From positions 102,341 to 166,340 of the forward strand of contig JACQVQ010000013.1 of NCBI GenBank assembly GCA_016209685.1: a stretch of DNA of 64,000 bases, in the 5' to 3' direction. This DNA comes from Planctomycetota bacterium (GTDB lineage: Bacteria; Planctomycetota; Brocadiia; Brocadiales; Bathyanammoxibiaceae). Each line of letters starts with the position of its first letter. The stretch's first letter is position 1. Made by a program: the position numbers and the translations under genes. This document shows positions 3,082-60,435 of the stretch, piece by piece. Under the pieces are notes generated by a model. That model ran no database searches. It had not been told where the DNA came from and was given only the letters and a program-made list of their open reading frames with translations.

Positions 3082-3110
3082 CGCATTCTCCTTCTATGTA
3101 CACTAAAGAT

Positions 3111-3148
3111 GTAGCGCGTGCTCCGCCTCAGGCGGATGTCGCACGATT
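3111..3148. repeat. GTAGCG-class REP-like hairpin with a CCGCC mini-hairpin nested in its loop
   Basis: GTAGCGCGTGC-[TCCGCCTCAGGCGGA]-TGTCGCACGATT; compare the 'empty' version GTAGCGTGCGAC-CTC-GTGTCGCACGATT at 28698-28726. Confidence 0.75.
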
Positions 3149-3446
3149 ATAAGGGTGTATTGTTCGCTCCGCCTTGGGCGGACGAACCTGTTCGCCATAG
3201 GCGAATCTGCCTCAGGCATGACCTAAGGTACGACAATCTACCCCTACTTTATACAATAAAGCATCAAGTAGTTTGTTGCTTCTACATAATATCAAATATT
3301 TTTTTAAAAGGGTAGGGCATTTTAGAATCTTTTGTATTTGCTATAGACATAGGTAATCCGCCTAAGGCGGATAAGGGGGGAAATCCCCCCTTACCACCCC
3401 CTAAAAAACAAGGGTTTAAAGGTTTAAGAGTTCAAGCGTTTAAGTT

Positions 3447-3515
3447 GTAGGGGCAGGGCCCGCCTAAAACATGGCGGGTTTTCAACTTGCCCCTGCCCAG
3501 TTGTAGGAACAGGGC
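3447..3515. repeat. GTTGAAAA-core composite repeat (inverted orientation)
   Basis: GTAGGGGCAGGGCCCGCCTAAAACATGGCGGGTTTTCAACTTGCCCCTGCCC; reverse complement matches the cores at 5841-5964, 6331-6454 and 26539-26591. Confidence 0.7.
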
Positions 3516-3535
3516 CGAAGAGGGGTCAGGGTCCA

Positions 3536-3639
3536 GGGGCTAGGGATTAGGGAAAGAATACAGTAGTCAGTCCGCCTCAGGTGGATAGGACGACCGTTCT
3601 TTATACTGACTTCTGAATTCTTAATTCTTGTCCCTAGCC
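3536..3639. repeat. ~105-bp dispersed repeat, copy 1 (with nested CCGCC hairpin)
   Basis: GGGAAAGAATACAGTAGTCAG...GACGACCGTTCTTTATACTGACTTCTGAATTCTTAATTCTTGTCCCTAGCC; homologous to 16882-16992. The right half also occurs at 40720-40775 (reverse). Confidence 0.8.
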
Positions 3640-3738
3640 TGTGCTTATGCCATAAGGAATCCCTCCACCACACAAACTAGTGGATTTGGCAGTTTTAAAA
3701 AGGAGAGAAAAGAGGTAAAATAATTCTCGTGCGTGGTA

Positions 3739-3864
3739 TTGAGACCTCTGCAAAAGTCATCGCACTACTTCGTGTCATTCTGAGCGAAGCGAAGAATCTG
3801 AGATTCTTCGGTCGCTTCGCTCCCTCAGAATGACAAATGCGCGGGATTCTTCAGAGTTCTCGTA
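3739..3864. mobile_element. MITE-like element A (TIR TTGAGACCTCTG..., internal GTCATTCTGAGCGAAGCGAAGAATC hairpin)
   Basis: Left end TTGAGACCTCTGCAAAAGTC, degenerate right end GATTCTTCAGAGTTCTCG, internal inverted repeat TCATTCTGAGCGAAGCGAAGAATC/GATTCTTCGGTCGCTTCGCTCCCTCAGAATGA. Confidence 0.65.
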
Positions 3865-5390: not shown

Positions 5391-5804
5391 ATGGACAAGA
5401 AAAAGGTCATAGAAATCCTCAACAAGGCCCTCACTGAAGAACTCGGCGCCCTTATTCAATACATGCAGCATCATTATCTTTATGAAGGGGCCAATTTCGT
5501 CTGTGTGAGCGAACTTATGAAGGAGTTCAGCATGACGGAGATGGACCATGCCTATAAACTGGGCGAGAGGATAGCAATGCTGGATGGGATTCCCACCACC
5601 AAACCAGGAGAGATAAAGGTCCCCAAGAAGAGCATAGATATGCTCAAGGCAAACCTGCAGGACGAACTGGCGGCCATTGAGAACTACAGGAAGTGGATTC
5701 AAGAAGTGGCAACCCTGGGAGACCCTGTGTCCCGTCTCATGCTTGAAAAGATTCTCGGGGATGAGGAAGAACATGCCCATGAGCTGGAGATGCTGCTAGC
5801 CTAG
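5391..5804 (+). CDS. bacterioferritin-like ferritin-fold di-iron protein
   Basis: 137-aa ORF; ExxH pairs (TEMDHAYK, DEEEHAHE) spaced as in a ferritin four-helix bundle. Confidence 0.75.
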   Translation: MDKKKVIEILNKALTEELGALIQYMQHHYLYEGANFVCVSELMKEFSMTEMDHAYKLGERIAMLDGIPTTKPGEIKVPKKSIDMLKANLQDELAAIENYRKWIQEVATLGDPVSRLMLEKILGDEEEHAHELEMLLA

Positions 5805-5829
5805 TAGGGGCAATCCGCCTAAGGCAGAC

Positions 5830-5964
5830 GGTTGCCCAAGACAATGGGGCAGGTGCAAGTTGAAAATCCTGAAAGTCCGCCTTTTGTTGGGGGGACGCCG
5901 TGTTCTGGGCGGGACCTGCCCTGAACCAGCACGGTTCAGGGCCTGCCCCTACAATGGACAAAGG
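5830..5964 (+). repeat. 135-bp direct repeat, copy 1
   Basis: Matches 6320-6454 with 2 mismatches (offset 490). ORF-track entries 5737..5961(-) and 6251..6496(-) share the resulting peptide SIVGAGPEPCWFRAGPAQNTAS. Confidence 0.95.
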
Positions 5965-6267: not shown

Positions 6268-6305
6268 CCTCAGGCGGAAAGAAATAAAATGGGAAAGAAA
6301 CTACG
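6268..6305 (+). repeat. 38-bp exact copy of the rnfD-rnfG junction
   Basis: CCTCAGGCGGAAAGAAATAAAATGGGAAAGAAACTACG is identical to 21999-22036 (rnfD last codons, TAA, rnfG first 5 codons). Confidence 0.95.
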
Positions 6306-6319
6306 CTTACAACCCTTGC

Positions 6320-6454
6320 GGTTGCCCAAGACAATGGGGCGGGTGCAAGTTGAAAATCCTGAAAGTCCGCCTTTTGTTGGGAGGACGCCGTGTTCTGGGC
6401 GGGACCTGCCCTGAACCAGCACGGTTCAGGGCCTGCCCCTACAATGGACAAAGG
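6320..6454 (+). repeat. 135-bp direct repeat, copy 2 (provides 5' UTR and start codon of the rubrerythrin-like gene)
   Basis: See copy 1; the repeat ends ...CCCCTACAATGGACAAAGG, containing ATG 6444. Confidence 0.95.
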
Positions 6455-8510: not shown

Positions 8511-8852
8511 GTGGCCCAATTTGAAATCAAATACGGAGGAGAGTTGCCCAAACAGCCCGCCATAAGGCTGGCCTGTTTCTTCACCATAAAACACGGCGAA
8601 AAGATTTTCTCCTACGAGGTCTATCTAGGCAGGCTCTTATCGGCCACGTGGGGGAACGTCAAGGAGGAAGAGGCAAGGCTCTTTCTAATAGAACTGGGTT
8701 TAAAAGAGGCCAGGGAGCAACTTGCCAAGGGGAATGAGCAAAACGGCTACAAAATTAAACTTGCCCACTGTCCCCGTCCCAGACTCTCTAATGAAAGGCG
8801 GGGCGAACTCCTGGCCTTTATCAGGGGCGAACCAATTACCTTGAACCTGTAG
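8511..8852 (+). CDS. hypothetical protein
   Basis: 113-aa ORF (GTG start) 6 nt after the HicB-like gene; no family recognised; TAG stop lies inside a REP-like palindrome. Confidence 0.4.
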   Translation: MAQFEIKYGGELPKQPAIRLACFFTIKHGEKIFSYEVYLGRLLSATWGNVKEEEARLFLIELGLKEAREQLAKGNEQNGYKIKLAHCPRPRLSNERRGELLAFIRGEPITLNL

Positions 8853-8876
8853 GGGCGTATTGCAATACGCCCCTAC
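8849..8876. repeat. REP-like perfect palindrome GTAGGGGCGTATTGCAATACGCCCCTAC
   Basis: 28-nt palindrome between convergent genes; TAG 8850-8852 stops the + gene and CTA 8873-8875 is the uvrA stop on the - strand. Confidence 0.9.
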
Positions 8877-11776
8877 AAGGGCAAATGTTCCTTCAAGGCC
8901 CCCCCCGTATGAGACCTCTCACACCTGGCCACTGCTTCCGGCGTACCTGCCACTACCACCTCTCCCCCTTCCTCTCCGCCCTCTGGTCCAAGGTCTATGA
9001 CGTAGTCCGCCTGTTTGATGACGTCCAGGTGGTGTTCAATGATTATCACCGTATTGCCCATGTCCACTAGACGGTTGAGGATCTTCAGGAGGTTGTGTAT
9101 ATCTGCAAAGTGTAGACCCACGGTAGGCTCGTCCAGGATGTAGAGGGTCTTGCCCGTAGGGGTCTTGGCCAGTTCGGTAGAGAGCTTCACCCTCTGGGCC
9201 TCTCCCCCTGAGAGGGTGGTGCTGGGCTGGCCCAGGGTTATGTAGCCCAGACCCACCTCCTTTAGTGTCCTTAAGGTCCTCTCTAACCTGGGGATGTTCC
9301 TGAAAAGCTCATGGGCCTCCTCTATCCTCATGGACAGTGCCTCTGCCACGTCCTTTTCTCTATAGGTTATCTCCAGGGTCTCCCTGTTGTATCGCTTCCC
9401 CTTGCATTGGTCACAGGTGACGTAGGTATCGGGCAAGAAGTGCATCTCCAGTCGTTTTATGCCCTGTCCCTCACAACCCTCACAGCGTCCCCCCTTGACG
9501 TTAAAGCTGAAACGCCCTGGGCCATACCCCCTTACCCTGGCCTCCCTGGTCTGGGCGAAGGCCTGCCTTATATGAGTAAAGGCCCCCGTGTAGGTGGCGG
9601 GGTTAGACCTGGGTGTACGGCCAATGGGGGACTGGTCTATCTCTATCACCTTATCTATCTTCTCACTACCCAGGATGCGCTCACAGGCCCCTGGCTTTAC
9701 GTTGCTCCGGTAGATGGCCCTGGCCAGATACCTGTGCAAGGTCTGGTCTACCAGGGTACTCTTGCCTGAACCAGAGACGCCCGTCACGCAGCAGAAGACC
9801 CCCAGGGGTATCTTGACGTCCATTGACTTTAGGTTATTCTCTCTGGCCCCTTTTATCTCTATGCAATTCTTCCAGTCTACCTTCCGCCTCCTGGGAGGTA
9901 TCTCTATCTTTAGACTCCCCTTGAGATAGCTGGCAGTGAGGGAACTATCCCTTTTGAGTATCTCCTCTAAAGACCCTTGAGATACTACCCGCCCCCCTCT
10001 ATCACCGGCCCCGGGCCCGAGGTCCACTATATGGTCTGCGCTGCGGATAGTCTCCTCGTCATGCTCCACTACCAGTATGGTGTTCCCCAAGTCGCGCAGG
10101 GCCTTCAGGGTGGAAATGAGGCGATGCCCGTCCCTGGAGTGGAGGCCGATGGTAGGCTCGTCCAGGACGTAGCAGACCCCCACCAGGCCACTACCTACCT
10201 GAGAGGCCAGCCTTAGACGCTGGGCCTCTCCCCCTGAGAGGGTAGTACTTATCCTGTCCAGGGTAAGGTAGCCAAGCCCCAGTTCTATCATGAACCTCAA
10301 TCGCCCCGTAATCTCCTTTAGAATCTCCCTGGCGATGCGCCCCTTTTCCGCGCCAGAAAAGAGGGTCTGGAATCCATCTAAAGTAGCGAGGGCACGGAGG
10401 GCATCCAGCCCCACGACCTGTCCAATATTCTTACCTCCTATCTCTACTGCAAGAGCCTCGGGCCTGAGTCTGGTCCCCTTACAGCCCTCGCACGTCTGCA
10501 CACACATGTAGGACTCCAGTCTCCTTTTCACGGCCTCCCGTTCCGTCCTGGAATGCAGGTCCTTGAGGAGGGGCAGTGCCCCCTCAAAACCCCTACCGCC
10601 ATGGAGGAGGGTCTCCCTGGTCTCCCTGGACAATTTCCTGAAGGGGGTATCCATCTCCGTGGGGAAGGAATCCCTCAGTAACCTTTCGTAGTAACCATCC
10701 ATCTTACTGCCCCAATCTCTAAGGGCATGGATTGCCCCTTGCCTGAGGCTTAGGGATTTTTCAGGGACTATCAGGTCCGTGTCAAACTCCAGCCTGTAGC
10801 CCAACCCCTCGCAACTCGGGCATGCGCCGTAGGGGCTGTTAAAGGAGAAGAGTCTGGGCGCTGGTTCTTCAAGACCCGTACCGCACTGCCTGCAGGCGTA
10901 GCGTTGGCTGTAAAGGGTGTCCTGCCATGCGGAATGCGGAGTGCGGAGTGCGTTCCGAGTGCGGAATGGGGAGTGCGGATTGCGGAATTTAATTCCGCAT
11001 TCTGCATTCCGCACTCCGCATTCCTGAGAGACTATCATTATCCCCTCTCCCACCTCCAGGCAGGTCTGGATGGAGTTATAGAGCCTGGGCCAGTCGGGTG
11101 TGGCCCTGACGCCCTCTTTCATCACGAGCCTATCCACCATTACCTCTATGTTATGGGTCTTGTAACGGCTGAGTTTTATGGGCTGGGTAATATCCACCAG
11201 GAGGCCATCCACCCTGGCCCTGACGAAGCCCTCCTTCCTCACGGCCTCAAAAACCTCCTTGTGTTCCCCCTTCTTCCCCTTTATTACCGGGGCCAGGAGC
11301 ATCAGCCTGGTACCGGGGGCTATCTGCATCACCCTTTCCACTATCTCGTCCGCACTCTGTCGAGCAACTTCCTGACCGCATTGCGGGCAGTGGGGCGTAC
11401 CCAGTTTGGCAAAGAGCAGTCTGAGGTAGTCGTATGTCTCCGTGACCGTGGCCACGGTGGAGCGAGGGCTGGCAGAAGCGGTGCGCTGTTCAATGGCTAT
11501 GGTTGGGGGGACACCTTCAATGTGGTCTACGTCGGGTTTCTGCATCTGCTCCAGGAACTGGCGGGCATAGGAGGACAGACTTTCTATGTAACGCCTCTGC
11601 CCCTCGGCAAAGATGGTGTCAAAGGCCAGGGAGGACTTCCCGGAGCCGCTCACCCCCGTCACCACCACCAACGCATCCCTGGGGATGTCAATGTCAATAT
11701 TCTTGAGGTTATGCACCCTCGCACCCCTGATAGATATGTATTGGTCTCTTTCTTCCATGATTAAAACCCATATCAT
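8873..11776 (-). CDS. uvrA: excinuclease ABC subunit A (UvrA), carrying an in-frame palindromic insert
   Basis: 967-aa ORF; two ABC modules (GVSGSGKSS x2, LSGGEAQR x2), Zn-module cysteines (CPQCG, CRQCG...CPSCEGLG). ATG at 11758 (MEERDQ...) is an alternative start. Confidence 0.95.
10928..11033. repeat. 106-bp 'CGGAAT/GCGGAGT' word palindrome inside uvrA
   Basis: TGCGGAATGCGGAGTGCGGAGTGCG...GCGGATTGCGGAATTTAATTCCGCATTCTGCATTCCGCACTCCGCATTCC, centre near 10993; read in-frame as [33 protein letters not shown]. Confidence 0.85.
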
Positions 11777-12289
11777 AACCCTTTAAATACTCAGCTTCAA
11801 TAGGGACAAGGGGTCAGAGGTTAGTGGGTAGCAATCTTTTCCCTAATTCCTACCCCCTAACCCCTGATCCCTAATTAATCAACCCCTGTCAGCAGGAGGT
11901 AAGTAATCCTTGACTTCCCATTGGAGAGGGCTAAAATGCCGTTTCTTATTCCTACTAGTTATAGCTAGAGACTCAGGGGGCAGCAGTCAGCCGTGCCCGA
12001 GGCAGGTCTGACGACTTGCTGATTCCTGATAGCTGATTGCTGATTTTTGACATTTGATCCGCCTGAGGCGGAGAAGGGGTGGATTACCCATGCCCATATA
12101 CTCCACACACTATCCAGATTTATGCTTGCGGATTCTTAAGGACTTCATATACAATGGCCAGGGGTTAGGAATCGGGGAGCATGGGTTAGGGAGTAGCGAG
12201 AAGAAATACAGCACTCAGAATATTCTGTATTCTGTATTCTAATTTTGTCCCCCTGACCCCTAGCCCCTGTTCCCTAACCCCTAGAAGAG

Positions 12290-12366
12290 CGGGGAGTGGC
12301 TCAGCTTGGCAGAGCGCGGCGTTCGGGACGCCGAGGTCGGGGGTTCAAATCCCCCCTCCCCGACCA
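12290..12366 (+). tRNA. tRNA-Pro (anticodon CGG)
   Basis: 77 nt cloverleaf folded by hand: acceptor CGGGGAG/CTCCCCG, D arm GCTC/GAGC, anticodon stem CGGCG/CGCCG with loop TTCGGGA, T arm GGGGG-TTCAAAT-CCCCC, discriminator A, encoded CCA. Confidence 0.9.
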
Positions 12367-12910: not shown

Positions 12911-12938
12911 GTAGGGGCGTTCAATTGAACGCCCCTAC
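12911..12938. repeat. REP-like palindrome GTAGGGGCGTTCAATTGAACGCCCCTAC
   Basis: Perfect 28-nt palindrome 27 nt downstream of the groEL stop. Confidence 0.85.
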
Positions 12939-14607: not shown

Positions 14608-14661
14608 GGGCGGACACGCAGGTCTACCCTACAATGGGCAGACACATAGGTCTGCCCCTAC
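14608..14661. repeat. tandem REP-like hairpins between groES and groEL
   Basis: GGGCGGACACGCAGGTCTACCCTAC + GGGCAGACACATAGGTCTGCCCCTAC; the terminal CTA (14658-14660) is the groES stop codon on the - strand. Confidence 0.8.
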
Positions 14662-14948
14662 TCCTCTATCTTGGCTAGAAGGTCAGTTTCTTTCATGATG
14701 AGATATTCTTTACCATCCACGGTTATTTCCGTTCCAGCGTACTTCCCAAAGAGGACAGAGTCCCCCTTCTTGACGGGGAGGTGCGCCCTCTTGCCCGATT
14801 CCAGGAGCCTGCCCTCCCCTATTGCCACTACCCTACCCTTTTGGGGCTTCTCCTTAGCAGTATCAGGGAGCACTATGCCTCCCGGGGTCTTTTCCTCTGC
14901 CTCCGTCCTTTCTATCACTATCCTGTCGTCTAAAGGTTTTATAGGCAT
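14658..14948 (-). CDS. groES: co-chaperonin GroES
   Basis: 96-aa [32 protein letters not shown]..., typical Cpn10. Confidence 0.95.
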
Positions 14949-14969
14949 ACTACTTCCTCCTTTAAAAAA

Positions 14970-15058
14970 GGTTACAGGTAACAGGTTACAGGGGACAGGG
15001 AGAAAGATTTTTACATGCTTCCCTGTCTCCTGTTTCCTGTCCCTTGTTTCCTGTTTCC
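14970..15058. repeat. 'ACAGG/CCTGT' word hairpin between groEL and groES
   Basis: Left arm GGTTACAGGTAACAGGTTACAGGGGACAGGG, right arm CCCTGTCTCCTGTTTCCTGTCCCTTGTTTCCTGTTTCC; imperfectly complementary. Confidence 0.7.
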
Positions 15059-15062
15059 TAGT

Positions 15063-16881: not shown

Positions 16882-16992
16882 GAGCTAGGGAGTAGGGGGT
16901 AGGGAAAGAATAAAGAATACAGTAGTCAGAATTCAGGACGGCCGTTCTTTATTCTGACTTCTGAATTCTTAATTCTTGCCCCTGGCCCCTGG
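16882..16992. repeat. ~105-bp dispersed repeat, copy 2 (no nested CCGCC hairpin)
   Basis: Homologous to 3536-3639. Where copy 1 has TCCGCCTCAGGTGGATAG, this copy has AATTCAG. Confidence 0.8.
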
Positions 16993-20980: not shown

Positions 20981-22018
20981 ATGTCCAATGCCCAAGAAAA
21001 GGTGGTGACACCCGCCTCAGGCGGACTTCCGACAAGGGAACTGCTGGTTACCACCTCTCCTCATATTAGGGGTCCGGAGGATATACCCAGGGTGATGTGG
21101 ACGGTAGTGGGTGCCCTGTTACCTGCGGGCCTGGTGGGTGTGTATTTTTTTGGTTATTACGCCCTCTTCATCGTCATCTTGAGCGTGCTGGCCGCCGTCT
21201 TGACGGAGGCAGTCATACAAAAATATCTCCTCGGCCAGCCGGTTTCCGTTAAGGACGGCAGCGCCGTAATCACGGGGCTTCTCCTGGCCTATATACTACC
21301 CCCCGGTGTACCCTGGTACATACCAGTGGTAGGGGCCATATTTGCTATTGGCATAGTAAAACATGCCTTCGGCGGACTGGGTAACAACATCTGGAACCCA
21401 GCCCTGGCAGCCAGGGCCTTCCTCCAGGTGGCCTATCCTGCCCCCATCAACTCCGACTGGCGAATCATAAAAGAGAGCGGAGGCATCCTGTCAAATATTA
21501 CCGGTATGGATGCCATCACACAGGCCAGCCCCTTACTCAAGGAATTCGGCGGCAAGACCTATAGCTACATGGACCTCTTGATAGGAAGGGTCCCAGGCTG
21601 TATCGGGGAGACCTCTGCCATCGCCCTGATGCTGGGTGGGGCATATCTAATCTACAGGGGGTACGTAGATTGGCGGGTGCCTGTGGGATACATAGGGACC
21701 GTCTTTGTCCTGGCAAAGCTCCTGCCTGCGCGGATAGAGGCCCCCTGGGCCAATGACCCAATCTACCACGTGCTGGCAGGGGGGCTTATGCTGGGGGCCT
21801 TCTTCATGGCCACGGACATGGTCACCTCCCCCCTGACCAGGAGGGGACTCCTCATCTTCGGTATAGGCTGTGGGGTGCTAACTACCCTGATAAGATTTTA
21901 TGCGGCCTATCCTGAGGGGGTTTGTTACTCCATCCTCCTCATGAACACGGCTACTCCCCTCATTGACAGATTCACTCAACCAACACTACTGGGGTCCGCC
22001 TCAGGCGGAAAGAAATAA
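20981..22018 (+). CDS. rnfD: Rnf complex subunit D (NqrB/RnfD family)
   Basis: 345-aa polytopic membrane ORF directly after rnfC; SPHIRGPE...MWTVVGALLPA N-terminus typical of RnfD. The last 8 codons (GSASGGKK) overlap a CCGCC hairpin repeat. Confidence 0.85.
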   Translation: MSNAQEKVVTPASGGLPTRELLVTTSPHIRGPEDIPRVMWTVVGALLPAGLVGVYFFGYYALFIVILSVLAAVLTEAVIQKYLLGQPVSVKDGSAVITGLLLAYILPPGVPWYIPVVGAIFAIGIVKHAFGGLGNNIWNPALAARAFLQVAYPAPINSDWRIIKESGGILSNITGMDAITQASPLLKEFGGKTYSYMDLLIGRVPGCIGETSAIALMLGGAYLIYRGYVDWRVPVGYIGTVFVLAKLLPARIEAPWANDPIYHVLAGGLMLGAFFMATDMVTSPLTRRGLLIFGIGCGVLTTLIRFYAAYPEGVCYSILLMNTATPLIDRFTQPTLLGSASGGKK

Positions 22019-22019
22019 A

Positions 22020-22649
22020 ATGGGAAAGAAACTACGGTACACGGTAGTACTCGGTATCATCTCCATAATTACGGCGGTAGGCGTGGGGGTCACCTATGTA
22101 ACCACGAAGGAGAAGATAAGACAGAAAGAAGAGGCCAGGCGGATGGAGGCCCTACTAACCGTCCTGCCAGGGCTGGAGGGACAGCCCCAGGAGGTTACGC
22201 CCCCCGGGGCAGCCCCCGAGGAGAAGGTCTACAAGGGGTTAGACAAAGACCAGAAGGTCATAGGTTATGCCGCCCTTGGCCAGGCCCAGGGCTACTCCAG
22301 CACCATAAAGACTATGGTGGGCCTGTCTCCTGACATGCAAAAAGTCCTGGCCATCAAGGTCCTGGCCCAGGGAGAGACCCCTGGCCTTGGCACCAGGGTC
22401 ATGGAGATAGCGACCACCAAGACCCTCTGGAAACTCCTTATGGGCGGCGGGGCTTCCCCTGCCGCAGCCGAACCATTGACCCCCTGGTTCCAGGAACAGT
22501 TCAAAGACAAGGCCCTCAATCAGCTAACGGTGGTCAGGGAGTCCGACCCCACGAAGATTCAGGCCATCACCGGGGCTACTATCAGTACCAAGGCAGTGGT
22601 GGCCTCCGTGGAAAATGGGGTGAAGAAGATAAAGGCTACAGTAAAGTAG
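22020..22649 (+). CDS. rnfG: Rnf complex subunit G
   Basis: ORF track starts 21963 inside rnfD; ATG 22020 lies 1 nt after the rnfD TAA. N-terminal TM helix and FMN-attachment-type motif ITGATISTKAV. Confidence 0.85.
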   Translation: MGKKLRYTVVLGIISIITAVGVGVTYVTTKEKIRQKEEARRMEALLTVLPGLEGQPQEVTPPGAAPEEKVYKGLDKDQKVIGYAALGQAQGYSSTIKTMVGLSPDMQKVLAIKVLAQGETPGLGTRVMEIATTKTLWKLLMGGGASPAAAEPLTPWFQEQFKDKALNQLTVVRESDPTKIQAITGATISTKAVVASVENGVKKIKATVK

Positions 22650-22673
22650 GGGCATGTTGCAACGTGCCCCTAC
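22646..22673. repeat. REP-like palindrome GTAGGGGCATGTTGCAACGTGCCCCTAC
   Basis: The rnfG TAG stop (22647-22649) lies within the GTAG end. Confidence 0.85.
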
Positions 22674-23640: not shown

Positions 23641-23668
23641 AGTAGGGGCGTATTGCGATACGCCCCTA
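23641..23668. repeat. REP-like palindrome GTAGGGGCGTATTGCGATACGCCCCTAC
   Basis: Differs from the 8849 copy by one loop base. Confidence 0.85.
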
Positions 23669-23719
23669 CTACTGTCTACTGTTTGCTGTCTACTGTCTTA
23701 CGCAGGCTAAAGCCTGCGG

Positions 23720-25687
23720 CTACCTGTTTACGTTCTGCAACTGTTCCAGGAAGGCCTCTACACGGGTGCGTATCTGGCCGTGGGCGCTGGGGGTGTAATC
23801 ACAGGTGAGGTGTAGCAGGGGGATGTTCCTCTTCTCAAATTCCTTCTTAAAGAGGGGGTAGTCGTACAGAGAATGGTCACAGAACTTCAGGGTATGGTAG
23901 ATGGCCCCATGTATGGAGCGTTTTTCTATTATGGACAGGATTCTGTTTATCCTGTCAAAGACGTTGGCCATGCGTGAGCAGGGTGACTTCCCAAGGTACC
24001 GGCCTGCCAGGGCCAAAAAGGGGTCGTCCTGTACCTCTACCAGGGCTTCGTAGAATCTGGAACCACTGCAGAGGTCGTCCGCCACTACCCTGGCCCCCGC
24101 CTCTTCTATAGTCTTTATTATCTCTTCGTTCTCCAGGATGCCCCCCCATATAAGGAGTCTTGGCAGTGCCTTGGTCTCTTTTGTGCAAGGGCGACCCACC
24201 GGGTCGCCCCTACCATCTTTCGTCAGACCCGCCGGGTCGTCACTACAATCTTTCATCAGGAGGGTAATATAATCGTGGAACTTCTCAGGGACGGCATTGA
24301 TTCCCCTCTTCATGAGGGAGAAGACCTCGTATCCCGAGTGGTTCAGGTATCCATTCCATTGTTTCTGTAAGAAAAGTTTGGCCTTCCCCCTGACCTTATT
24401 ATAGAGTGCGATGCTCTTGTGGAGCTCTTCCTGGGTAATCTTGCGGTTGCAGTATTTCTCTAACCTCTCCTTGAAGTTCTTTATCAGGAGGCTGAAGTAG
24501 TTTATGGCGGCCGCATCGTTAGTCTTGGGCAGGTCCAGGATGTAATTGAACTTCTTGTCTCCGTCCAGACGCTTCCAGGCGTCGTACAGCCTGCGCATCC
24601 CGTCACAGGAGTTCATGAACACTATCCCTTCCAGCCCTTCCAGACTGCCCGAGAGTTTCTCCTCCATAGCGGCCTTTATGTAAGGGCAGATATTGGTGCA
24701 GAGGTGCTCTTCGGCCAGTCCTTCGGCCTTCTTTGCCCCGGTTATCCTGACGGGATGGAACCCCGCCGCCCGGATGACCTCTATCGGGGTATAGGTGCAC
24801 AGGTAACCCATCCTGGGGAGATTGCTCTCCTCCAAGGAGGCGTCGGCCTTAATCTCTTCCACGGGCCTCTCTTCAGCGGTGGATTTCACCTGGATTGAGG
24901 GGCTGTTTCTTTTGCCGGCACTTTCCAGCCCAATAAGGGCGGCCCCTACTGCCCCGACAATCTGAGGGTCCGGGGACATCCTGAGCCTCGTACTCAACAG
25001 CCTTTCCAGTTCCTTGACCATGCCCACGTTCTTGGCCACCCCTCCGCTCATTACCACCTGTTCCTCTACGCCCACACGGCGGGTCTGGGCGGCAATCCTC
25101 TTGGCTATTGCTATGTGGAGGGCGCGGCAGATGTCCTCCCTCTTGTGGTCTGCCCCTATGAGGGAGACCACCTCTGACTCTGCGAAGACCGTGCAGAGAC
25201 TGCTTATGGAGAGCTTATCGCCTCCCTGGAGAGAGAGTGCCCCCATCTCCTCCAGCTCTATCTCAAGGGTCCTGGCCATCACCTCCAGGAACCGACCGGT
25301 GCCGGCGGCGCACTTGTCGTTCATTACAAAATCCATAACGTTGCCACTCTGGTCAACCTTTATGACCTTGCTGTCCTGACCGCCTATGTCTATTACGGTC
25401 CTTACCTTGGGGAAGAAGTAATGTGCCCCTTTGGCATGACAGGTTATCTCGGTTACTACCTCCTGGGCGAAGGGTACCCTGATGCGGCCGTAACCAGTGG
25501 CCACCACGTAGTCAATGTCCTTCTCTGAAAGCCTGGCGACCTCCAGTACCTTCTTAAAGGCCTTGTCAGCGGCCTTCTTACTACTGGCCCCCGTAGCTAT
25601 TACCTCAGAGGCCACAATCTCCCTCTTATCGTTCAGCAACACTACGTCTGTTGATAAAGACCCAATATCAATGCCAAGACTCAACAT
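23720..25687 (-). CDS. fusion of BcrAD/BadFG/HgdC-type activase ATPase with HgdB/BcrC-like dehydratase-component domain
   Basis: 655-aa ORF; N-terminal GIDIGSLSTD and NDKCAAGTGRFLE (activase hallmarks); C-terminal half resembles 2-hydroxyacyl-CoA dehydratase D-component. Contains a REP-like insert at 24188-24213. Confidence 0.8.
   Translation of the reverse strand: MLSLGIDIGSLSTDVVLLNDKREIVASEVIATGASSKKAADKAFKKVLEVARLSEKDIDYVVATGYGRIRVPFAQEVVTEITCHAKGAHYFFPKVRTVIDIGGQDSKVIKVDQSGNVMDFVMNDKCAAGTGRFLEVMARTLEIELEEMGALSLQGGDKLSISSLCTVFAESEVVSLIGADHKREDICRALHIAIAKRIAAQTRRVGVEEQVVMSGGVAKNVGMVKELERLLSTRLRMSPDPQIVGAVGAALIGLESAGKRNSPSIQVKSTAEERPVEEIKADASLEESNLPRMGYLCTYTPIEVIRAAGFHPVRITGAKKAEGLAEEHLCTNICPYIKAAMEEKLSGSLEGLEGIVFMNSCDGMRRLYDAWKRLDGDKKFNYILDLPKTNDAAAINYFSLLIKNFKERLEKYCNRKITQEELHKSIALYNKVRGKAKLFLQKQWNGYLNHSGYEVFSLMKRGINAVPEKFHDYITLLMKDCSDDPAGLTKDGRGDPVGRPCTKETKALPRLLIWGGILENEEIIKTIEEAGARVVADDLCSGSRFYEALVEVQDDPFLALAGRYLGKSPCSRMANVFDRINRILSIIEKRSIHGAIYHTLKFCDHSLYDYPLFKKEFEKRNIPLLHLTCDYTPSAHGQIRTRVEAFLEQLQNVNR
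24188..24213. repeat. REP-like palindrome AGGGCGACCCACCGGGTCGCCCCTAC inside the dehydratase-like CDS
   Basis: Read in-frame on the - strand as ...DGRGDPVGRPC... Confidence 0.7.
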
Positions 25688-25841
25688 AAATCACTCCTAT
25701 AAAATGAAAATCTGTCCATCCAAGCCTACCCCGCACCGTTCTGGTGCAGGGCCTGCCCTGAGTGAGGCGGCAGTAAGATAGCAAACTCCTACTGGACGGT
25801 CAAGCCTAAAATCAGGGACCAGGGGCTAGGGGGGTAGGGAA

Positions 25842-25909
25842 GAATTGCATTGTAAATTGGAAATTGCAAATTTTAAAATTTAAAATTTCCAATTTACATT
25901 TTACAATTC
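25842..25909. repeat. AT-rich 'AAATTG' word palindrome, copy 1
   Basis: GAATTGCATTGTAAATTGGAAATTGCAAATTTTAAAATTTAAAATTTCCAATTTACATTTTACAATTC; related to 60368-60427. Confidence 0.85.
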
Positions 25910-26105
25910 TGTCTGCCCTAAGCGGTGAGTAGGGGGCAGGGAAAGAATTCAGAATCCAGAATTCAGAATACTAACTACTGAAGACTTTGGACTATAGACT
26001 TTTGCAGGGTTCTCGTTGTATAATCCCTAGAAAGTTTTAATCCGAGGATAATAACACCACCCAGCGTATCGGAGGTAAAGGGCCATTATAACTATCTCAA
26101 AAGAG

Positions 26106-26510
26106 TTGAAGACCAAAGGGGATGGCGACTGCCACAATATCACTCCAGAGGTAGAGCAGGCGGTAAGGGATTCGGGGGTGAGTTCTGGACTGGTTAATAT
26201 CTTTATTCCCGGCTCTACGGCCGCACTGACCACCCTGGAATTTGAAGAAGGGGTAATAAAGGACCTTGCCGGGGCGATGGAAAGGCTTATCCCAAAAAAC
26301 ATACCCTACCAGCACGATGAACGCTGGCAGGATAGGAACGGGTACTCCCACGTAAGGGCGGCCCTCATGGGCCCCTCTCTTACTGTCCCCTTTGTAAATA
26401 GCGAGTTACAGCTTGGGCGCTGGCAGCAGATAGTCCTTATAGATTTTGACAACCGCAGCCGGAACAGGCAGTATCTTATTAATATCCTGGGGGGAGATAG
26501 GCATTCGTAG
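26106..26510 (+). CDS. YjbQ/UPF0047-family protein
   Basis: 134-aa ORF (TTG). ...STAALTTLEFEEGV...YSHVRAALMGPSLTVPF...LQLGRWQQIVLIDFDNR matches the YjbQ pattern. GGAGGT at 26071-26076 suggests an ATT/ATA start near 26085. Confidence 0.7.
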   Translation: MKTKGDGDCHNITPEVEQAVRDSGVSSGLVNIFIPGSTAALTTLEFEEGVIKDLAGAMERLIPKNIPYQHDERWQDRNGYSHVRAALMGPSLTVPFVNSELQLGRWQQIVLIDFDNRSRNRQYLINILGGDRHS

Positions 26511-26591
26511 GGACAGACCTTCAGGTCTGTCCCATCTCGGACAGGGCTAAAGTTGAAAATCCGCCATATTTTGGGCGGGCCCTGTCCCTAC
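26507..26591. repeat. composite REP-like + GTTGAAAATCC-core repeat between convergent yjbQ and immA-like genes
   Basis: GTAGGGACAGACCTTCAGGTCTGTCCC...GGACAGGGCTAAAGTTGAAAATCCGCCATATTTTGGGCGGGCCCTGTCCCTAC. The yjbQ TAG (26508-26510) and the immA-like stop (CTA 26588-26590) sit in the GTAG/CTAC ends. Confidence 0.85.
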
Positions 26592-27307
26592 AATTCAGTC
26601 CGCAATATCACCCTCTTCCAGTCCTCCCTGAAGATTGGCCAGCCCACAACGCTTATCTCTTCGTCCTTCAAGGATACCTCTGCCCCGCTTGTGGTTACCT
26701 CTTTCAGGCACTGACTTTCCAGTAGGTAGGAGGGTCTTACCGTAAAGGGGTAAGAACTCTTCCTCTTGTAGAGCCTCCCATTGTCAAAGATGGTTACTAT
26801 CATAGGTCTGAATTCCAGCATTCGGAAGGCTATAAGCTCGTGGCTGGCCGTGGAGTAGGTCTTTTTTAGCCTCAGGAGGTCAAAGTCTGAGACCTCAGCA
26901 TCCCTTTTGAACCACTCTCCTGGCAGGAGGAGGTTGATGGCCATGAGATTACTGGCCTCCTCCAGGTGGGCCTCCTCTACCCTCCCCTTTAGGGACACCT
27001 CTCCTATCTCATGGGCAATGGTGAACTGCTTTCTCTCTGATTTATTGGGATTCTTACTGCCTACTATTATGGTTCCCAGGTCCCATCTAGTCCGGCTGTA
27101 ACCCCGGGTCTTTAAGTGGGGGTCTATCTGGACGGTTAGCCCCAGCTTCCTGGCTATCAGGTAGGCATCCACAGGGGGGGCATGGATATCCATCCTCTCC
27201 AGTAGCGCCCGGGCCTCTTGTTCTGCCAGGGCCGCTATGTCGGGAACCATCCTGCCGCTCTCCTGCCATTTATAGGGGATGTCCCCGCCACCCGATGGTT
27301 GAAGCAC
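26588..27307 (-). CDS. ImmA/IrrE-like (COG2856) domain protein with degenerate metal motif
   Basis: 239-aa ORF translationally coupled to the upstream XRE gene; FTIAHEIGEVSL occupies the HExxH position but reads HEIGE. Confidence 0.6.
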   Translation of the reverse strand: MLQPSGGGDIPYKWQESGRMVPDIAALAEQEARALLERMDIHAPPVDAYLIARKLGLTVQIDPHLKTRGYSRTRWDLGTIIVGSKNPNKSERKQFTIAHEIGEVSLKGRVEEAHLEEASNLMAINLLLPGEWFKRDAEVSDFDLLRLKKTYSTASHELIAFRMLEFRPMIVTIFDNGRLYKRKSSYPFTVRPSYLLESQCLKEVTTSGAEVSLKDEEISVVGWPIFREDWKRVILRTEL

Positions 27308-30078: not shown

Positions 30079-30231
30079 TTTGAGACCTCTGAAAAACCCA
30101 GCTCATTGTCCCGCCTGAGGCAGAAAGAATCTCTAATCCGAAATGTCACCCTGAGCGAAGCGAAGGGGCTAGATTCTTCGCTTCGCTCAGAATGACACAT
30201 TGCGATGCCGTGGCTTTTTCAGAAGTCTCTA
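30079..30231. mobile_element. MITE-like element C (complete)
   Basis: TIRs TTTGAGACCTCTGAAAAACC (left) and GGCTTTTTCAGAAGTCTCT (right, 17/19 complementary), internal GTCACCCTGAGCGAAGCGAAGGGG / GATTCTTCGCTTCGCTCAGAATGAC hairpin. Confidence 0.75.
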
Positions 30232-30569: not shown

Positions 30570-33113
30570 TTACCTCACCACAATATTTACCAGCTTCCTG
30601 GGTACCAGGATTATATTCACCACCTTCTTCCCGTCCAGGAATTTCTTTACGTTCTCGTCCTCTAATGCCCTGGCCTTAACCTCCTCCTCCTGGAGGTCTA
30701 CCGGGACCATCAGGTGTCCCCTGACCTTGCCGTTTACCTGGACTACCAACTCTATTTCTCCTACCTTAATGGCCTCAGGGTCGTAGGTGGGACGTGGTTG
30801 TTCAAAGAGACTGGGCTTGTTACCTAAGACCTGCCAGAGTTCCTCGCAGATGTGTGGCACAAAGGGGGCCAGGAGTAACGTAATAGACTCCAGGGAGTGG
30901 CGGAGGACCTGTAGAGAGAGGATGTTCTCTGTCAGACTTGCCTCACTCACTGACGCTCTGGGTCTAAATTTCTCCACCTGGTTAAAGAGTTCCATTACGG
31001 AAGCAATGGCGGTGTTAAAATGCCAGGAGGTCTCTATGTCCTCAGAGACCTTTTTTATGGTAAGGTGGGTGGCCCTGTAAAGATGCCTGGCCTCCTCAGG
31101 GAGTTGAGAGGTTTTAGTCTTTGTTCCTGGCAGGTTACTGAGTTTTGCTGCCTCCTCTGCTACCTTTTGCCAGAGGCGGTTGAGGAAACGGGAACTGCCG
31201 ACTACTGCCCTGTCGCTCCACTCGGCGTCCTTCTCTGGAGGCCCGATGAAGAGGATATAAAGCCTGAGGGTATCTGCCCCGTACTTTTTGATAATATCCT
31301 CCGGGCTTACCACATTGCCCCTGGACTTGGACATCTTGGCGCCGTCCTTGATTATCATCCCCTGGGTGAAGAGGTTCTTAATGGGCTCCTGGAATTTCAC
31401 GCAGCCCATATCGCAAAGCACCTTTGTTATGAACCTGCAATAGAGGAGGTGCAGTATGGCATGTTCCACTCCACCTATATATTGGTCCACCGGGAGCCAT
31501 CGGTTCACAAGCTCGCTATCAAAGGGTCTATTAGAATCCCTGGGCGATAGATACCTGAGATAGTACCACCCCGAGTCCACAAAGGTGTCCATAGTATCCA
31601 CCTCCCTCCGTGCCTCCCCCTGACATCTTGGACAAGGCGTGCGGAAGAACTCCTCCACCTCTGCCAGTGGACTCTGACTGGAGTGTCTCAGTTTCTTAAC
31701 AGGGGGCAGGAGTACAGGCAGGGCCTCTTCGGGTACTGGGACTATGCCACAGGCGTTGCAATATATTATGGGTATGGGCGCCCCCCAGTACCTCTGGCGG
31801 GATATGAGCCAATCCCTCAGGCGGTAATTTGTGGAGGGGACGCCCAGTTTTTTCTCTTTTAGATATTCAATTATCTTTGGGATTGCCTCCCGATTAGGTA
31901 GACCGCTAAATGGCCCGGAGTCTACCTGGGTGCCATCTCCAGTATAGGCCTCCTTCATAGCCTCGGGTCTCAGTGTCTCCCCTTCGGGCTGAATCACCAC
32001 CCTGACGGGTAGGTTGTAGGCCCTGGCGAACTCAAAGTCCCTCTGGTCATGGGCAGGTACGGCCATCACCGCCCCTGTGCCGTATTCCATCAGGGCATAG
32101 TTGGCTATCCAGAGGGGTACCTCCTCGTTAGTTACAGGGTTTATGACATGGAGACCCATGAAGACCCCCTCCTTGGGTGCGCCTGCGGCGGAGCGCTGTA
32201 TGAGGTTCTCGTTCCTGGCCTTTTCTACGAAGGAGAGTATATCGTCCCTCCTGGGATTATTCTCCACCAGTAACTTAATGATAGGATGCTCAGGGGCGAG
32301 GACCATAAAGGTAACGCCGAAGAGGGTATCTGGTCTGGTGGTGAAGCAGGTCAGCGTAGGGGCAGGTTTCAAACCTGCCCCCTCAGATGGGAGTGGCCCT
32401 GCCACTCTAAAATCTATCCTGGCCCCTTCACTCTTACCAATCCAGTTCCTCTGCATCACCTTCACCCTCTCTGGCCATCCCTTCAGGAGTTCCAGGTCGT
32501 CCAGTAGCCTCTGGGCATAATCGGTAATCTTGAAGAACCACTGTTCTAAATCCTTTTGCTTGACGGGGGTATCACACCGCTCGCAGAGGCCGTCTATTAC
32601 CTGTTCATTGGCCAGGACGGTAGAACAGGAGGGGCACCAGTTTACCGCCGCCTTTTTCTTATAGGCCAGCCCTCTCTCATAGAGTTGGAGGAATATCCAC
32701 TGGGTCCACTTGTAATACTCAGGGTCGCAGGCGGCCACCTCCCGGTCCCAGTCGTAACCTGTACCCCAGTGGAGGAGCTGGTTCTTCATGGCCGCTATGT
32801 TTCTATAGGTAAGTTCGGCAGGGTGACAACCCTCCTTTATGGCGGCATTCTCTGCCGGCAGCCCAAAGGCGTCCCACCCCATCGGGGTAAGGACGTTGTA
32901 GCCCTTCATGAGCTTATAGCGTACCACCACGTCCCCGAGGATATAGTTCCTTGCGTGCCCCACGTGGAGTGTCCCCGAAGGATAAGGGAACATCACCAGG
33001 CAGTAGAACTTCTCTTTGGAAGAGTCCTCCTCTATTTTAAAGAGCCCCCGGCGGTTCCAGTACTCCTGCCATTTAGGCTCAATCTCCCAGAACTTGTACT
33101 TATTATCTTCCAA
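30570..33113 (-). CDS. leuS: leucyl-tRNA synthetase
   Basis: 847-aa ORF; HIGH-type motif LHVGHARNY, KMSKS motif GAKMSKSRGN, TTRPDT editing-domain motif. REP-like 29-nt element in-frame at 32356-32384. Confidence 0.97.
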   Translation of the reverse strand: MEDNKYKFWEIEPKWQEYWNRRGLFKIEEDSSKEKFYCLVMFPYPSGTLHVGHARNYILGDVVVRYKLMKGYNVLTPMGWDAFGLPAENAAIKEGCHPAELTYRNIAAMKNQLLHWGTGYDWDREVAACDPEYYKWTQWIFLQLYERGLAYKKKAAVNWCPSCSTVLANEQVIDGLCERCDTPVKQKDLEQWFFKITDYAQRLLDDLELLKGWPERVKVMQRNWIGKSEGARIDFRVAGPLPSEGAGLKPAPTLTCFTTRPDTLFGVTFMVLAPEHPIIKLLVENNPRRDDILSFVEKARNENLIQRSAAGAPKEGVFMGLHVINPVTNEEVPLWIANYALMEYGTGAVMAVPAHDQRDFEFARAYNLPVRVVIQPEGETLRPEAMKEAYTGDGTQVDSGPFSGLPNREAIPKIIEYLKEKKLGVPSTNYRLRDWLISRQRYWGAPIPIIYCNACGIVPVPEEALPVLLPPVKKLRHSSQSPLAEVEEFFRTPCPRCQGEARREVDTMDTFVDSGWYYLRYLSPRDSNRPFDSELVNRWLPVDQYIGGVEHAILHLLYCRFITKVLCDMGCVKFQEPIKNLFTQGMIIKDGAKMSKSRGNVVSPEDIIKKYGADTLRLYILFIGPPEKDAEWSDRAVVGSSRFLNRLWQKVAEEAAKLSNLPGTKTKTSQLPEEARHLYRATHLTIKKVSEDIETSWHFNTAIASVMELFNQVEKFRPRASVSEASLTENILSLQVLRHSLESITLLLAPFVPHICEELWQVLGNKPSLFEQPRPTYDPEAIKVGEIELVVQVNGKVRGHLMVPVDLQEEEVKARALEDENVKKFLDGKKVVNIILVPRKLVNIVVR
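32356..32384. repeat. REP-like element inside leuS
   Basis: GTAGGGGCAGGTTTCAAACCTGCCCCCTC, read on the - strand as ...EGAGLKPAPT... just N-terminal of the conserved TTRPDT motif. Confidence 0.8.
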
Positions 33114-35482: not shown

Positions 35483-35510
35483 GTAGGGGCACGTTACAAC
35501 GTACCCCTAC
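35483..35510. repeat. REP-like palindrome GTAGGGGCACGTTACAACGTACCCCTAC
   Basis: Between the OMP gene and znuA. Confidence 0.8.
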
Positions 35511-38171: not shown

Positions 38172-38346
38172 TTGAGACCTCTGAAAAACTTTACTTACAT
38201 GTCATTCTGAGGGAGCTAAGCGACCGAAGAATCTGACACAAAGTGTCACCCTGAGCGAAGCGAAGGGTCTAGTTTCTTAGCCATGAGATTCTTCGCTTCG
38301 CTCAGAATGACAAGTTGTGCGGTGTAGACTTTTGCAGAGGTCTCAA
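38172..38346. mobile_element. MITE-like element D (complete, two internal hairpin modules)
   Basis: TIRs TTGAGACCTCTGAAAAAC / GACTTTTGCAGAGGTCTCAA. Sits between the znuB stop (38168-38170) and thiE. Confidence 0.8.
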
Positions 38347-38431: not shown

Positions 38432-39112
38432 ATGTTGCAGAGAAGTCCCTGTAAGGCCCTTGACCGCCTGGGGCGGGCAAGGTTATACGTAATACTGACC
38501 AGCCATCTGTGCAAGAGGCCCATCCTGGAGACGGCCCGCCTGGCCCTTAAGGGGGGGGCAGATATGCTCCAACTGAGGGAGAAGGACATGCCAGATGCGG
38601 ACTTCCTCAGGCTGGCACTAGAACTCAGGGAACTTACTGCAAGGATGGGGAGACTATTTATCGTAAATGACCGCCACCACATCGCCCTGGAGTCCGGGGC
38701 CGATGGGGTGCACCTGGGACAGGGGGATATGCCTATTAGCGAGGCCAGAAAACTGTTAGGAAAAGATTTTATCATTGGCCTATCCACCCACAGCCTTGAG
38801 CAGGTCGAGATGGCCTATAAGCAGGGGGCGGATTACATTGGCATCGGCCCTATTTCCCCCACACAAACCAAGCCAAAGGAACGACCCGTAGGCACAGAAA
38901 TACTGTATAAAATGAAAGACCTTCCCATACCTTGTTTTGTGGTAGGGGGCATTACGTTGACTAACCTGTCAGAGGTTACCGGGGCCGGGGTGGGGCGAGT
39001 GGCCGTATGTTCTGCCGTGATAAGCCAGGACGATGTACTTAATACAACGCGCCTTCTCAGCCAGGCATTACGAAGCGGTAGGGGCACATTGCAACGTGCC
39101 CCTACTTTGTAA
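38432..39112 (+). CDS. thiE: thiamine-phosphate synthase
   Basis: 226-aa ORF; RLYVILTS...GGADMLQLREKD...GADGVHLGQGD...GISTHS...GADYIGIGPI pattern. The last ~11 codons run through a REP-like palindrome. Confidence 0.9.
   Translation: MLQRSPCKALDRLGRARLYVILTSHLCKRPILETARLALKGGADMLQLREKDMPDADFLRLALELRELTARMGRLFIVNDRHHIALESGADGVHLGQGDMPISEARKLLGKDFIIGLSTHSLEQVEMAYKQGADYIGIGPISPTQTKPKERPVGTEILYKMKDLPIPCFVVGGITLTNLSEVTGAGVGRVAVCSAVISQDDVLNTTRLLSQALRSGRGTLQRAPTL
39078..39105. repeat. REP-like palindrome GTAGGGGCACATTGCAACGTGCCCCTAC overlapping the thiE 3' end
   Basis: Translated as ...GRGTLQRAPTL* at the thiE C-terminus. Confidence 0.8.
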
Positions 39113-47113: not shown

Positions 47114-47266
47114 AAAAAATATAATAATTTATTTGGAAGAGATTATCAAATGAATTTGGTTGTAGATGTGTCCCCCTACCCCCTGACCCCTAGCCCATGG
47201 ACCCTTCCGTGTGATTGACAAATACCTGGGAAGGTGTATATTTGGGAAAAGGATGCGGAACTGACT

Positions 47267-60325: not shown

Positions 60326-60367
60326 TTATCAGCAGTCAACTATCAGCAATCAGCTTAACCCTGAAAA

Positions 60368-60427: not shown

Positions 60428-60435
60428 GTCTCTCC

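Follow-up and report, generated by a model that had tools for sequence, protein, structure and literature searches.

Passages of the survey by Di Nocera, De Gregorio and Rocco (2013, BMC Genomics 14:522; PMC3733652) describe a set of repetitive extragenic palindromes (REPs) with GTAG termini, which includes the REPs of Escherichia coli and Pseudomonas and the SMAGs of Stenotrophomonas. According to these passages, the GTAG termini frequently give flanking open reading frames (ORFs) a TAG stop codon, most of the REPs found between convergent genes are less than 20 bp from both ORF 3′ ends, and head-to-head REP dimers have GTAG on the outside. Here we describe GTAG-tagged hairpins in a 64,000-nucleotide (nt) stretch of DNA from an uncultured Brocadiales-related planctomycete (the window, to which coordinates refer), where one perfect palindrome at 8849–8876 supplies the stop codons of both genes of a convergent pair. 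Measured against those passages, the core phenomenon is already published for GTAG REPs, and what is new is the host and the doubly tagged palindromic variant. That both convergent stops can come from one monomer with two tags, or from one head-to-head dimer, follows directly from the properties given there.

Like the GTAG REPs of these passages, the elements are short G+C-rich stem-loops with a GTAG foot, present in high copy as monomers, head-to-head dimers and tandems, and are found mainly after ORFs and between convergent ORFs, with some intragenic copies, including one in uvrA. They differ in their host and in that the tag, published as unpaired and at one end, is in many monomers carried on both strands and pairs with itself in a 28-nt perfect palindrome. 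Neither a single monomer giving both convergent stops nor a perfectly palindromic doubly tagged 28-mer was found in the passages of PMC3733652 retrieved by term search. A literature search using the sequence strings returned only primers and unrelated matches.

The REPIN/RAYT systems (Nunvar 2010; Bertels & Rainey 2011; Messing 2012) also contain inverted REP pairs with GTAG outside. There, GTAG is specifically bound by a Y1 transposase, the REP-associated tyrosine transposase (RAYT), and a 28-mer identical to the focal palindrome of the window lies beside a RAYT-like gene in a Salinibacteraceae metagenome-assembled genome (MAG; locus L020). Unlike in those systems, no RAYT was found among the window ORFs scanned and, in four genomes from other phyla, the RAYT-like gene contains the palindrome in frame and is not just flanked by it. 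A second comparison is with the stop-proximal REPs of E. coli, where a REP ≤15 nt from the stop lowers translation of the upstream gene (ref. 17 in PMC12306157, as summarised in a passage of that paper) and REPs stabilise mRNA (PMC3479197). The hairpins examined here likewise lie directly 3′ of a stop codon, but the distance is zero or negative, with the stop codon within the stem. By analogy, down-regulation of the E. coli type would be the likely mode of action if a functional effect exists. The elements share with the IS200/IS605 family, which inserts 3′ of a fixed tetranucleotide without duplication, a hairpin that follows a 4-nt guide. They differ from it in having no transposase between their ends and a length of 25–150 nt, and insertion of this kind would be the model for the target-site alternative considered below.

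Tagged hairpins and the genes that stop in them

The elements are GTAG-tagged REPs of the REP/REPIN type, and many copies are doubly tagged. A total of 32 tagged hairpin ends, with stems of 8–12 bp, were found in the 64 kb, and tag sites occurred at 0.66 per kb in the window versus 0.047 per kb in 80 unrelated loci. GTAG forms the 5′ foot of every listed copy, and is frequently present on both strands and base-paired. As the tag is then carried on both strands (GTAG-hairpin-CTAC), each strand starts with TAG. Copies occurred as doubly tagged 28-nt perfect palindromes, in head-to-head dimers and as tandem units, with inverted dimers or clusters at 26507–26591, 57588–57677 and 5804–5952 and a tandem pair at 14608–14661. 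When folded as RNA, the 28-mers gave −19 to −21 kcal/mol with z-scores of −5 to −7.

The palindrome at 8849–8876 (GTAGGGGCGTATTGCAATACGCCCCTAC; 28 nt with GTAG on both strands) lies between ORF2 (8511–8852, forward strand), encoding a conserved hypothetical protein of 113 amino acids (aa), and uvrA (8873–11776, reverse strand; Pfam UvrA). As a preliminary description of the window had claimed, both genes stop within it: the TAG of ORF2 at 8850–8852 is part of the GTAG, and the stop of uvrA is the complement of 8873–8875 in the CTAC. The RNA hairpin of this 28-mer was calculated at −20.5 kcal/mol (z=−5.9). An extension of the palindrome into its flanks (8841–8884) was considered and rejected; the partial symmetry is coincidental since the last codons of ORF2 are ancestral.

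A head-to-head dimer of two tagged hairpins at 26507–26591 (85 nt, GTAG outside on both strands, folding as two hairpins with −46.5 kcal/mol) was likewise found to supply both stops of a convergent pair. The stop of yjbQ (UPF0047; 26106–26510, forward strand) is at 26508–26510 in the GTAG, and that of a gene identified by Pfam as Peptidase_M78/ImmA-like (26588–27307, reverse strand) is at 26588–26590 in the CTAC. Three single cases listed previously were also confirmed in the sequence. groES (14658–14948, reverse strand; Pfam Cpn10, residues 3–94 of 96) stops at 14658–14660, in the TAG of the first (14636–14661) of two tandem GTAG-hairpin units located between groES and groEL (14608–14661, reverse strand; second unit 14608–14632). 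The FMN_bind/RnfG-like gene (rnfG; 21963–22649, forward strand; Pfam FMN_bind) stops at 22647–22649 in the GTAG of a doubly tagged 28-nt palindrome at 22646–22673, and the SPFH gene (Pfam Band_7; 48311–49381, reverse strand) at 48311–48313 in the CTAC of a 28-nt palindrome whose right arm is degenerate (GTTCCTAC) at 48287–48314.

Two genes reported to end immediately beside a tag do so. The TAA of g47234 (47234–48286, forward strand) directly precedes the palindrome at 48287–48314 (TAA followed by GTAGGGGC), and the TAG of a ferritin-like gene (5391–5804, forward strand; Pfam Ferritin) directly precedes the in-frame TAG of the tag (TAG followed by TAGGGGC) of a composite GTAG…CTAC element at 5804–5952. 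An eighth tag-stopped gene, additional to those listed before, is HGD-D (23720–25687, reverse strand), whose stop is the TAG of a GTAG-CC-GCAGGCTTTAGCCTGC repeat (23701–23723, reverse strand) belonging to a second tagged family. The affected genes are real, as Pfam matches (UvrA, UPF0047, Peptidase_M78, Cpn10, FMN_bind, Band_7 and Ferritin among them) were found for all but ORF2, which had no Pfam match and is conserved in relatives.

Tag-borne stops compared with chance

The coincidence of tag and stop codon is real and non-random. The stop coincided exactly with the tag at 7 of the 32 tagged ends, and 17 of the 32 followed a co-oriented stop at a distance of no more than 100 nt. The number of coincidences expected was 0.10 when ends were placed uniformly over the 8.7 kb of non-coding DNA and 0.17 when the 17 ends lying ≤100 nt from a co-oriented stop were placed (P~1e-10 for each). 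In a stricter control that covered the window and eight related loci, 7 of the 41 ends defined by an algorithm had a TAG that closed an ORF of ≥100 codons, compared with 3.7% of ordinary GTAG sites (P=7e-4), and the counts in the other two frames at the 41 ends were 3 and 3. Cases with the tag in the TAG frame outnumbered read-through cases in the window by 7–8 to 1, where 1:2 is expected.

Stop usage was determined for 56 curated window genes (TAA 29, TAG 20, TGA 7), and a G preceded the TAG in 12 of 20. Elements carried the stops of eight of the 56 genes, amounting to 8 of the 20 TAG stops. TAG made up 34% of stops in a related REP-poor genome (GCA_051388875.1) and 36% in the window, and high TAG usage is on this ground a trait of the clade rather than caused by the repeats.

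When 185,579 species genomes were scanned for GTAGGGGC-N12-GCCCCTAC, a cross-phylum set of at least 120 loci (L001–L120) was obtained, and statements on this set refer to the matches listed. These came from Chloroflexota, Cyanobacteria, Nitrospirota, Desulfobacterota, Bacteroidota and others; the window's own genome was not among them. The TAG of the palindrome closed an ORF of ≥100 codons at 28 of 262 ends, compared with 0–5 at other offsets. This apparent 20-fold spike at the TAG of the tag is largely an artefact, because only the tag offset has a guaranteed stop codon. Overall, the cross-phylum ORF test (P~0.01–0.02, with unverified ORFs) weakly favours an association with stops.

Gene ends in relatives and the origin of tag-borne stops

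Gene ends were compared at syntenic loci with closer relatives (L121, L136 and L137; 85–97% protein identity), a mid-distance metagenome genome (L135 and L139) and the REP-poor genome (L122, L134 and L138; 66–88% identity). In these alignments the commonest result is an unchanged C-terminus; truncation is a minority outcome and extension, apparently by stop capture, also occurs. The C-termini of groES, rnfG, ORF2 and g47234 were unchanged, and those of SPFH and ferritin were within one residue. groES, which has the same length at its C-terminus as in relatives, ends GAG TAG followed by GAGG in L122, which has no hairpin unit, and GAG TAG followed by GGGCAGAC… in the window and in L121, which has one unit at the same place. 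ORF2 of the window and its orthologues in L121 (91%) and L122 (72%) share the position of their last residue, which in L122 is followed by TGA and no hairpin. The REP-free rnfG orthologue in L134 has the same end residue with TAA, and g47234 ends KGTY in all four genomes compared. For ferritin, the stop in L121 is the TAG of the tag (CCG TAG GGGC), L122 has GAG TAG at the same codon with no hairpin, and the window stop (TAG TAG) is one codon earlier than in both.

Two proteins were extended with loss of the native stop, a result outside the alternatives offered by the preliminary description. UvrA runs 2 aa past the conserved …YL end of its relatives in a C-terminal alignment; uvrA in L121 and L122 stops at its own GTAG two codons earlier, and the end reads CTG TAG TCG TCG TAG GGGC in L121 and TTG CCC TTG TAG GGGC in the window. 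The YjbQ tail, GGDRHS, is 2–3 aa beyond the usual G-EK end, and L136 (AAA TAG GTG TAG GGGC) and the window (AGG CAT TCG TAG GGAC) have the tag in the same register. The ImmA-like protein was 6 aa shorter than its REP-free orthologue in L134. The proposed comparison of C-terminal lengths with orthologues thus returned unchanged, extended and truncated cases, and no single alternative covers all of them. The suggestion that C-termini were redefined by truncation holds for the ImmA-like protein and a helix-turn-helix (HTH) protein of L136 (1 aa shorter); most of the affected proteins are not shortened. Insertion at or next to stops would agree with the unchanged C-termini and with the GTAG stops that have no hairpin in the REP-poor relative, but hairpin loss explains the same data.

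In L136, a relative of 92–96% identity, a palindrome (GTAGGGGCAATTCATGAATTGCCCCTAC) at approximately 1428–1456 replaces the overlapping junction of the HTH stop and the ImmA-like start. It provides the TAG stop of the HTH gene and, in a CATG loop, the ATG of the called ImmA-like start. The window does not have this palindrome at 27307, and its HTH protein is the one that is 1 aa longer.

In the REP-poor genome, four of nine orthologues of tag-stopped genes (uvrA, groES, ferritin and HGD-D) end in GTAG with no hairpin, whereas a single gene does so among the 32 others (Fisher P=0.006). The orthologues with no REP end in TAA for rnfG, yjbQ, immA and SPFH and in TGA for ORF2. The hairpin-less GTAG stops would fit a targeting of GTAG stops or, equally, hairpin loss that kept the needed TAG. 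Turnover is evident at several positions, with the groES and ferritin hairpins present in the window and L121 and absent in L122, and the hairpin at the HTH stop present in L136 and absent in the window. At the SPFH/g47234 junction the palindrome cores are distinct in the window (GCACGGCACGCCGTG) and L137 (GCGACCCGGCGGGTCGC), and the cores at the yjbQ/immA junction differ between the window and L136. Differing cores at identical junctions point to re-occupation of, or conversion at, what may be fixed sites.

Convergent genes in REP-free relatives are only 10–43 nt apart (SPFH/g47234, 10 nt; uvrA/ORF2, 14 nt; yjbQ/immA, 43 nt), and the REP-free groES–groEL spacer is 11 nt including the ribosome-binding site. 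With spacers this small, any element that lodges in them comes into contact with the ORF ends and provides a working stop with its terminal TAG, on both strands where genes converge. The copies of the window lie directly against ORF 3′ ends, and we think it probable, on balance, that the tag-borne stops arose by a mixture of three routes. In the first, a hairpin would be placed or kept exactly at the stop, preferably where the gene already ends in GTAG. The second would be stop capture, in which an in-frame tag TAG a few codons further on makes the native stop redundant, so that it decays and the protein gains 2–3 residues. In the third, occasional route, the element would insert into a dispensable tail and truncate the protein, and rarer out-of-frame placements would lead to read-through tails or to stops within the hairpin loop. 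The coding regions of both transcripts would then end in the first base pairs of a hairpin of −19 to −21 kcal/mol with no U-tract. Going by the E. coli REP work only, this hairpin may stabilise the 3′ end and possibly slow translation termination, and would not be an intrinsic terminator. By the same analogy, a functional role for a hairpin that starts inside a stop codon is plausible.

Several points weigh against this reading. The orthologue sample was small (9–10 genes), with relatives of 70–95% identity, and the hairpin-less GTAG stops may be scars of lost hairpins rather than targets. A pre-existing GTAG was not required, as the REP-free rnfG and ORF2 end in TAA and TGA, and at groES the second of the tandem units has a GTAG to itself, which argues against GTAG as a mere flanking target. 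No Y1_Tnp was detected among 40 window ORFs scanned. In the cross-phylum set, long open frames numbered 28 in the TAG frame versus 23 and 19 in the other two, and 10.7% of palindrome ends had a TAG that closed a long ORF, compared with 6.7% of ordinary GTAG sites in the same loci.

A metagenome contig scan with GroES recovered only relatives of ≤73% identity, which were of no use for the polarity of gain and loss. Homologues of UvrA, YjbQ and SPFH assign the window to a Brocadiales-related planctomycete, and it was 99.5–100% identical to contigs of three MAGs (GCA_052361005.1, GCA_052360985.1 and GCA_052360745.1), and no presence/absence polymorphism of REPs was found among these same-species contigs, where the only indels were runs of N. 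Same-species MAG contigs and read assemblies begin exactly inside repeats, at window positions 5910, 12912 and 14657 (L123, L126 and L127), and the repeats thus break up assemblies of this organism.

The alternative that survives best is target-site-specific integration, though we give it a distinctly lower probability than the mixture of routes. A RAYT-like Y1 transposase would put the hairpin directly 3′ of an existing GTAG in the fashion of IS200/IS605; copies at intragenic GTAGs would be purged, and the survivors would be those at intergenic GTAGs and at stops consisting of G+TAG. The filled and empty sites at groES (window and L121 versus L122) and ferritin (L121 versus L122), where the empty sites are already GTAG, are as this would predict, as is the enrichment of GTAG stops among the REP-free orthologues, and the different cores at identical SPFH and yjbQ/immA junctions suggest repeated occupation. 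GTAG is also a guide-like RAYT tetranucleotide, and the CT at which the E. coli RAYT cleaves (C^T; PMC3479197) is present within the CTAC foot of the palindromes. Against it, a GTAG would also remain after the loss of a hairpin, since the gene goes on needing the TAG as its stop. Neither the TAA and TGA ends of five of the REP-free orthologues nor the separate GTAG of the second groES unit is expected from it, and the window has GTAG stops with no hairpin, for example that of groEL (12965) and those at 23193, 56788 and 60436. REP transposition is, moreover, not known to be site-specific in the manner of IS200/IS605, which also counts against it.

A hairpin kept at the ORF end by selection, for shaping mRNA 3′ ends or linking translation termination to the fate of the mRNA and acting in both directions at convergent genes, appears unlikely as the main explanation. 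The strength of the hairpins, the retention of position while the sequence turns over at the SPFH, yjbQ/immA and uvrA/ORF2 junctions, and the E. coli precedents for reduced translation and mRNA stabilisation would all agree with it. However, the REP-poor genome has the same genes without hairpins, and copies are also found 5′ of a gene (35483), within genes (24189, 32356 and 39078) and far from stops, a distribution that looks selfish or neutral. The lack of a U-tract also speaks against this alternative, as the hairpins are hence not intrinsic terminators. No terminator-like call was obtained among the tagged hairpins between 8000 and 27500, none of which has a T-tract (3′ flanks include CTACAAGGGC and CTACCAGGGG), and identity as intrinsic (Rho-independent) terminators was rejected for the same reason.

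Random insertion followed by a survivorship filter, in which tag TAGs in frame in coding tails survive and proteins are simply cut short, would account for the shortened ImmA-like and HTH proteins, the out-of-frame outcomes and the in-frame intragenic copies described below, but it is improbable given the unchanged, near-unchanged and extended C-termini, GroES and YjbQ Pfam domains that are complete to the last position, and a TAG-frame to read-through ratio far from 1:2.

Other origins for individual features were also rejected. A TA target-site duplication (GTAC target, Tc1/IS630-like) does not fit the right flank at the rnfG site, which is C and not the expected base, and is ruled out also by the conservation of GTAG/CTAC as part of the unit. 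GTAGNCTAC, found at stops (uvrA in L122 and at approximately 42343 in the window), was considered as the trace of an excision, but it lacks conservation in L137 and is probably due to chance.

Further copies, RAYT-like genes and implications

Out-of-frame placement is seen in thiE (38432–39112), which reads through a doubly tagged palindrome in its 3′ tail (39078–39105, forward strand), ends …GRGTLQRAPTL and is followed 6 nt later by murJ. In L121, the stop of a PDZ gene is the TAA of a TTTAAA loop, and in L135 that of immA is a TAG in the loop. In-frame intragenic copies were found in HGD-D, leuS and uvrA. The tagged hairpin in the HGD-D coding sequence (24189–24213, reverse strand) is part of a 16-aa in-frame insert (…DGRGDPVGRPC…) that is absent from L134, and that in leuS (32356–32380, antisense strand; …GAGLKPAPT…) is common to the window and L136.

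Other copies are away from stops. Doubly tagged 28-nt palindromes occupy intergenic positions at 12911–12938, 26 nt downstream of the groEL stop and serving no gene as a stop, and at 23642–23669, the latter with one base different from the focal palindrome. A further one at 35483–35510 is 5 nt upstream of the znuA ATG (35516) and absent from L136. A cluster of three tagged hairpins (57588–57677) lies 19 nt downstream of an amidohydrolase stop. The GTAG-CC-GCAGGCTTTAGCCTGC family was also found in L136, downstream of holA.

Other hairpin families crowd the intergenic DNA of the window, for example TCCGCCTNAGGCGGA mini-hairpins and GTCATTCTGAGCGAAGCGAAGAATCT…AGATTCTTCGCTTCGCTCAGAATGACA, together with mirror-image low-complexity arrays (GGGTTAGGG…CCCTAACCC, CAGGTTACAGG…CCTGTAACCTG and GAATTCAGAAT…). 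Examples are at 3100–3830, 12150–12285, 14965–15060, 16890–16990, 25830–25990 and 30090–30200, and at 38190–38330, 40750–40880, 60340–60435, 62880–62950 and 63660–63800. Mini-hairpins are nested within the tagged element at 5804–5952 and within the uvrA/ORF2 element of L121. The sequence at 6290–6400, upstream of a rubrerythrin gene, repeats the rnfD-end/rnfG-start text of 22007–22036 (GGAAAGAAATAAAATGGGAAAGAAACTACG) and also approximately 80 nt (5835–5915) of the composite element at 5804–5952, which suggests that flanking gene fragments may have been copied together with repeats.

Near the focal junction, uvrA contains an in-frame insert of approximately 28 aa (10931–11024) made up of a low-complexity palindromic repeat (GGAATGCGGAGTGCGG… / …CCGCACTCCGCATTCC). 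The insert is absent in orthologues P0007 and P0008, and other repeat-derived sequence is present there in P0001, the closest UvrA (93%), P0003 and P0005. A second, divergent UvrA paralogue (938 aa) is encoded at 51629–54445. A tRNA-Pro(CGG) lies between uvrA and a cold-shock-like gene (12290–12366).

A tblastn search for RAYT gave no match in the window or its relatives. In L020, one copy of the focal 28-mer was found within a RAYT-like gene and another 26 nt upstream of this gene, which matches NCBIfam NF047646 at E=5e-16, below its cutoff, and Pfam Y1_Tnp. RAYT-like Y1 genes were present in four of the 120 cross-phylum loci listed (L020, 2721–3437; L033, 7471–7989; L085, 3447–3773; L095, 1–270). 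In all four, the GTAGGGGC-N12-GCCCCTAC palindrome is in frame and at the same position, just after the HUH motif (MPNHxHG…), and encodes GRGxxxxAPT. We found no published account of a REP within its own putative transposase gene.

Identical 28-nt palindromes recur across unrelated phyla, the leading cores being AATTCATGAATT and GCACGGCCGTGC (at least 8 genomes each) and GTATTGCAATAC, the focal core, and GGTTCGCGAACC (at least 7 each). Mismatches in the 12-nt core were limited to a single pair or absent in 122 of 131 copies, and in 102 of 130 copies the palindrome did not extend past GTAG/CTAC. The two bases outside the tag are pyrimidine-rich, with CC, TT and CT each approximately 2-fold enriched. 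The recurrence of identical palindromes suggests either horizontal spread or strong constraint that may be tied to the RAYT-like gene.

The findings raise no new question, and the issues of REP mobility and usefulness are unchanged by them. The best lead they provide combines the link of the hairpins to GTAG stops, by targeting or retention, with the RAYT-like genes bearing their own palindrome. We regard it as a tentative idea, well short of probable, that GTAG stops are preferred docking or retention sites of pan-bacterial doubly tagged palindromes mobilised by a palindrome-bearing RAYT-like Y1 transposase. If this were true, hairpins would be re-seeded at the same ORF ends, explaining both the differing cores and the hairpin-less GTAG stops, and a stop-codon-directed single-strand integration that depends on a guide tetranucleotide would shape C-termini and stop usage.

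For annotation, elements carry a substantial share of the stops in REP-rich genomes, and the last residues of a protein, for example …PL, …HS or …GRGTLQRAPTL, can stem from a repeat. In evolutionary terms, the window presents a clean, small-scale case in which selfish or neutral repeats have lengthened or shortened ORFs by a few residues and one DNA palindrome serves both strands.

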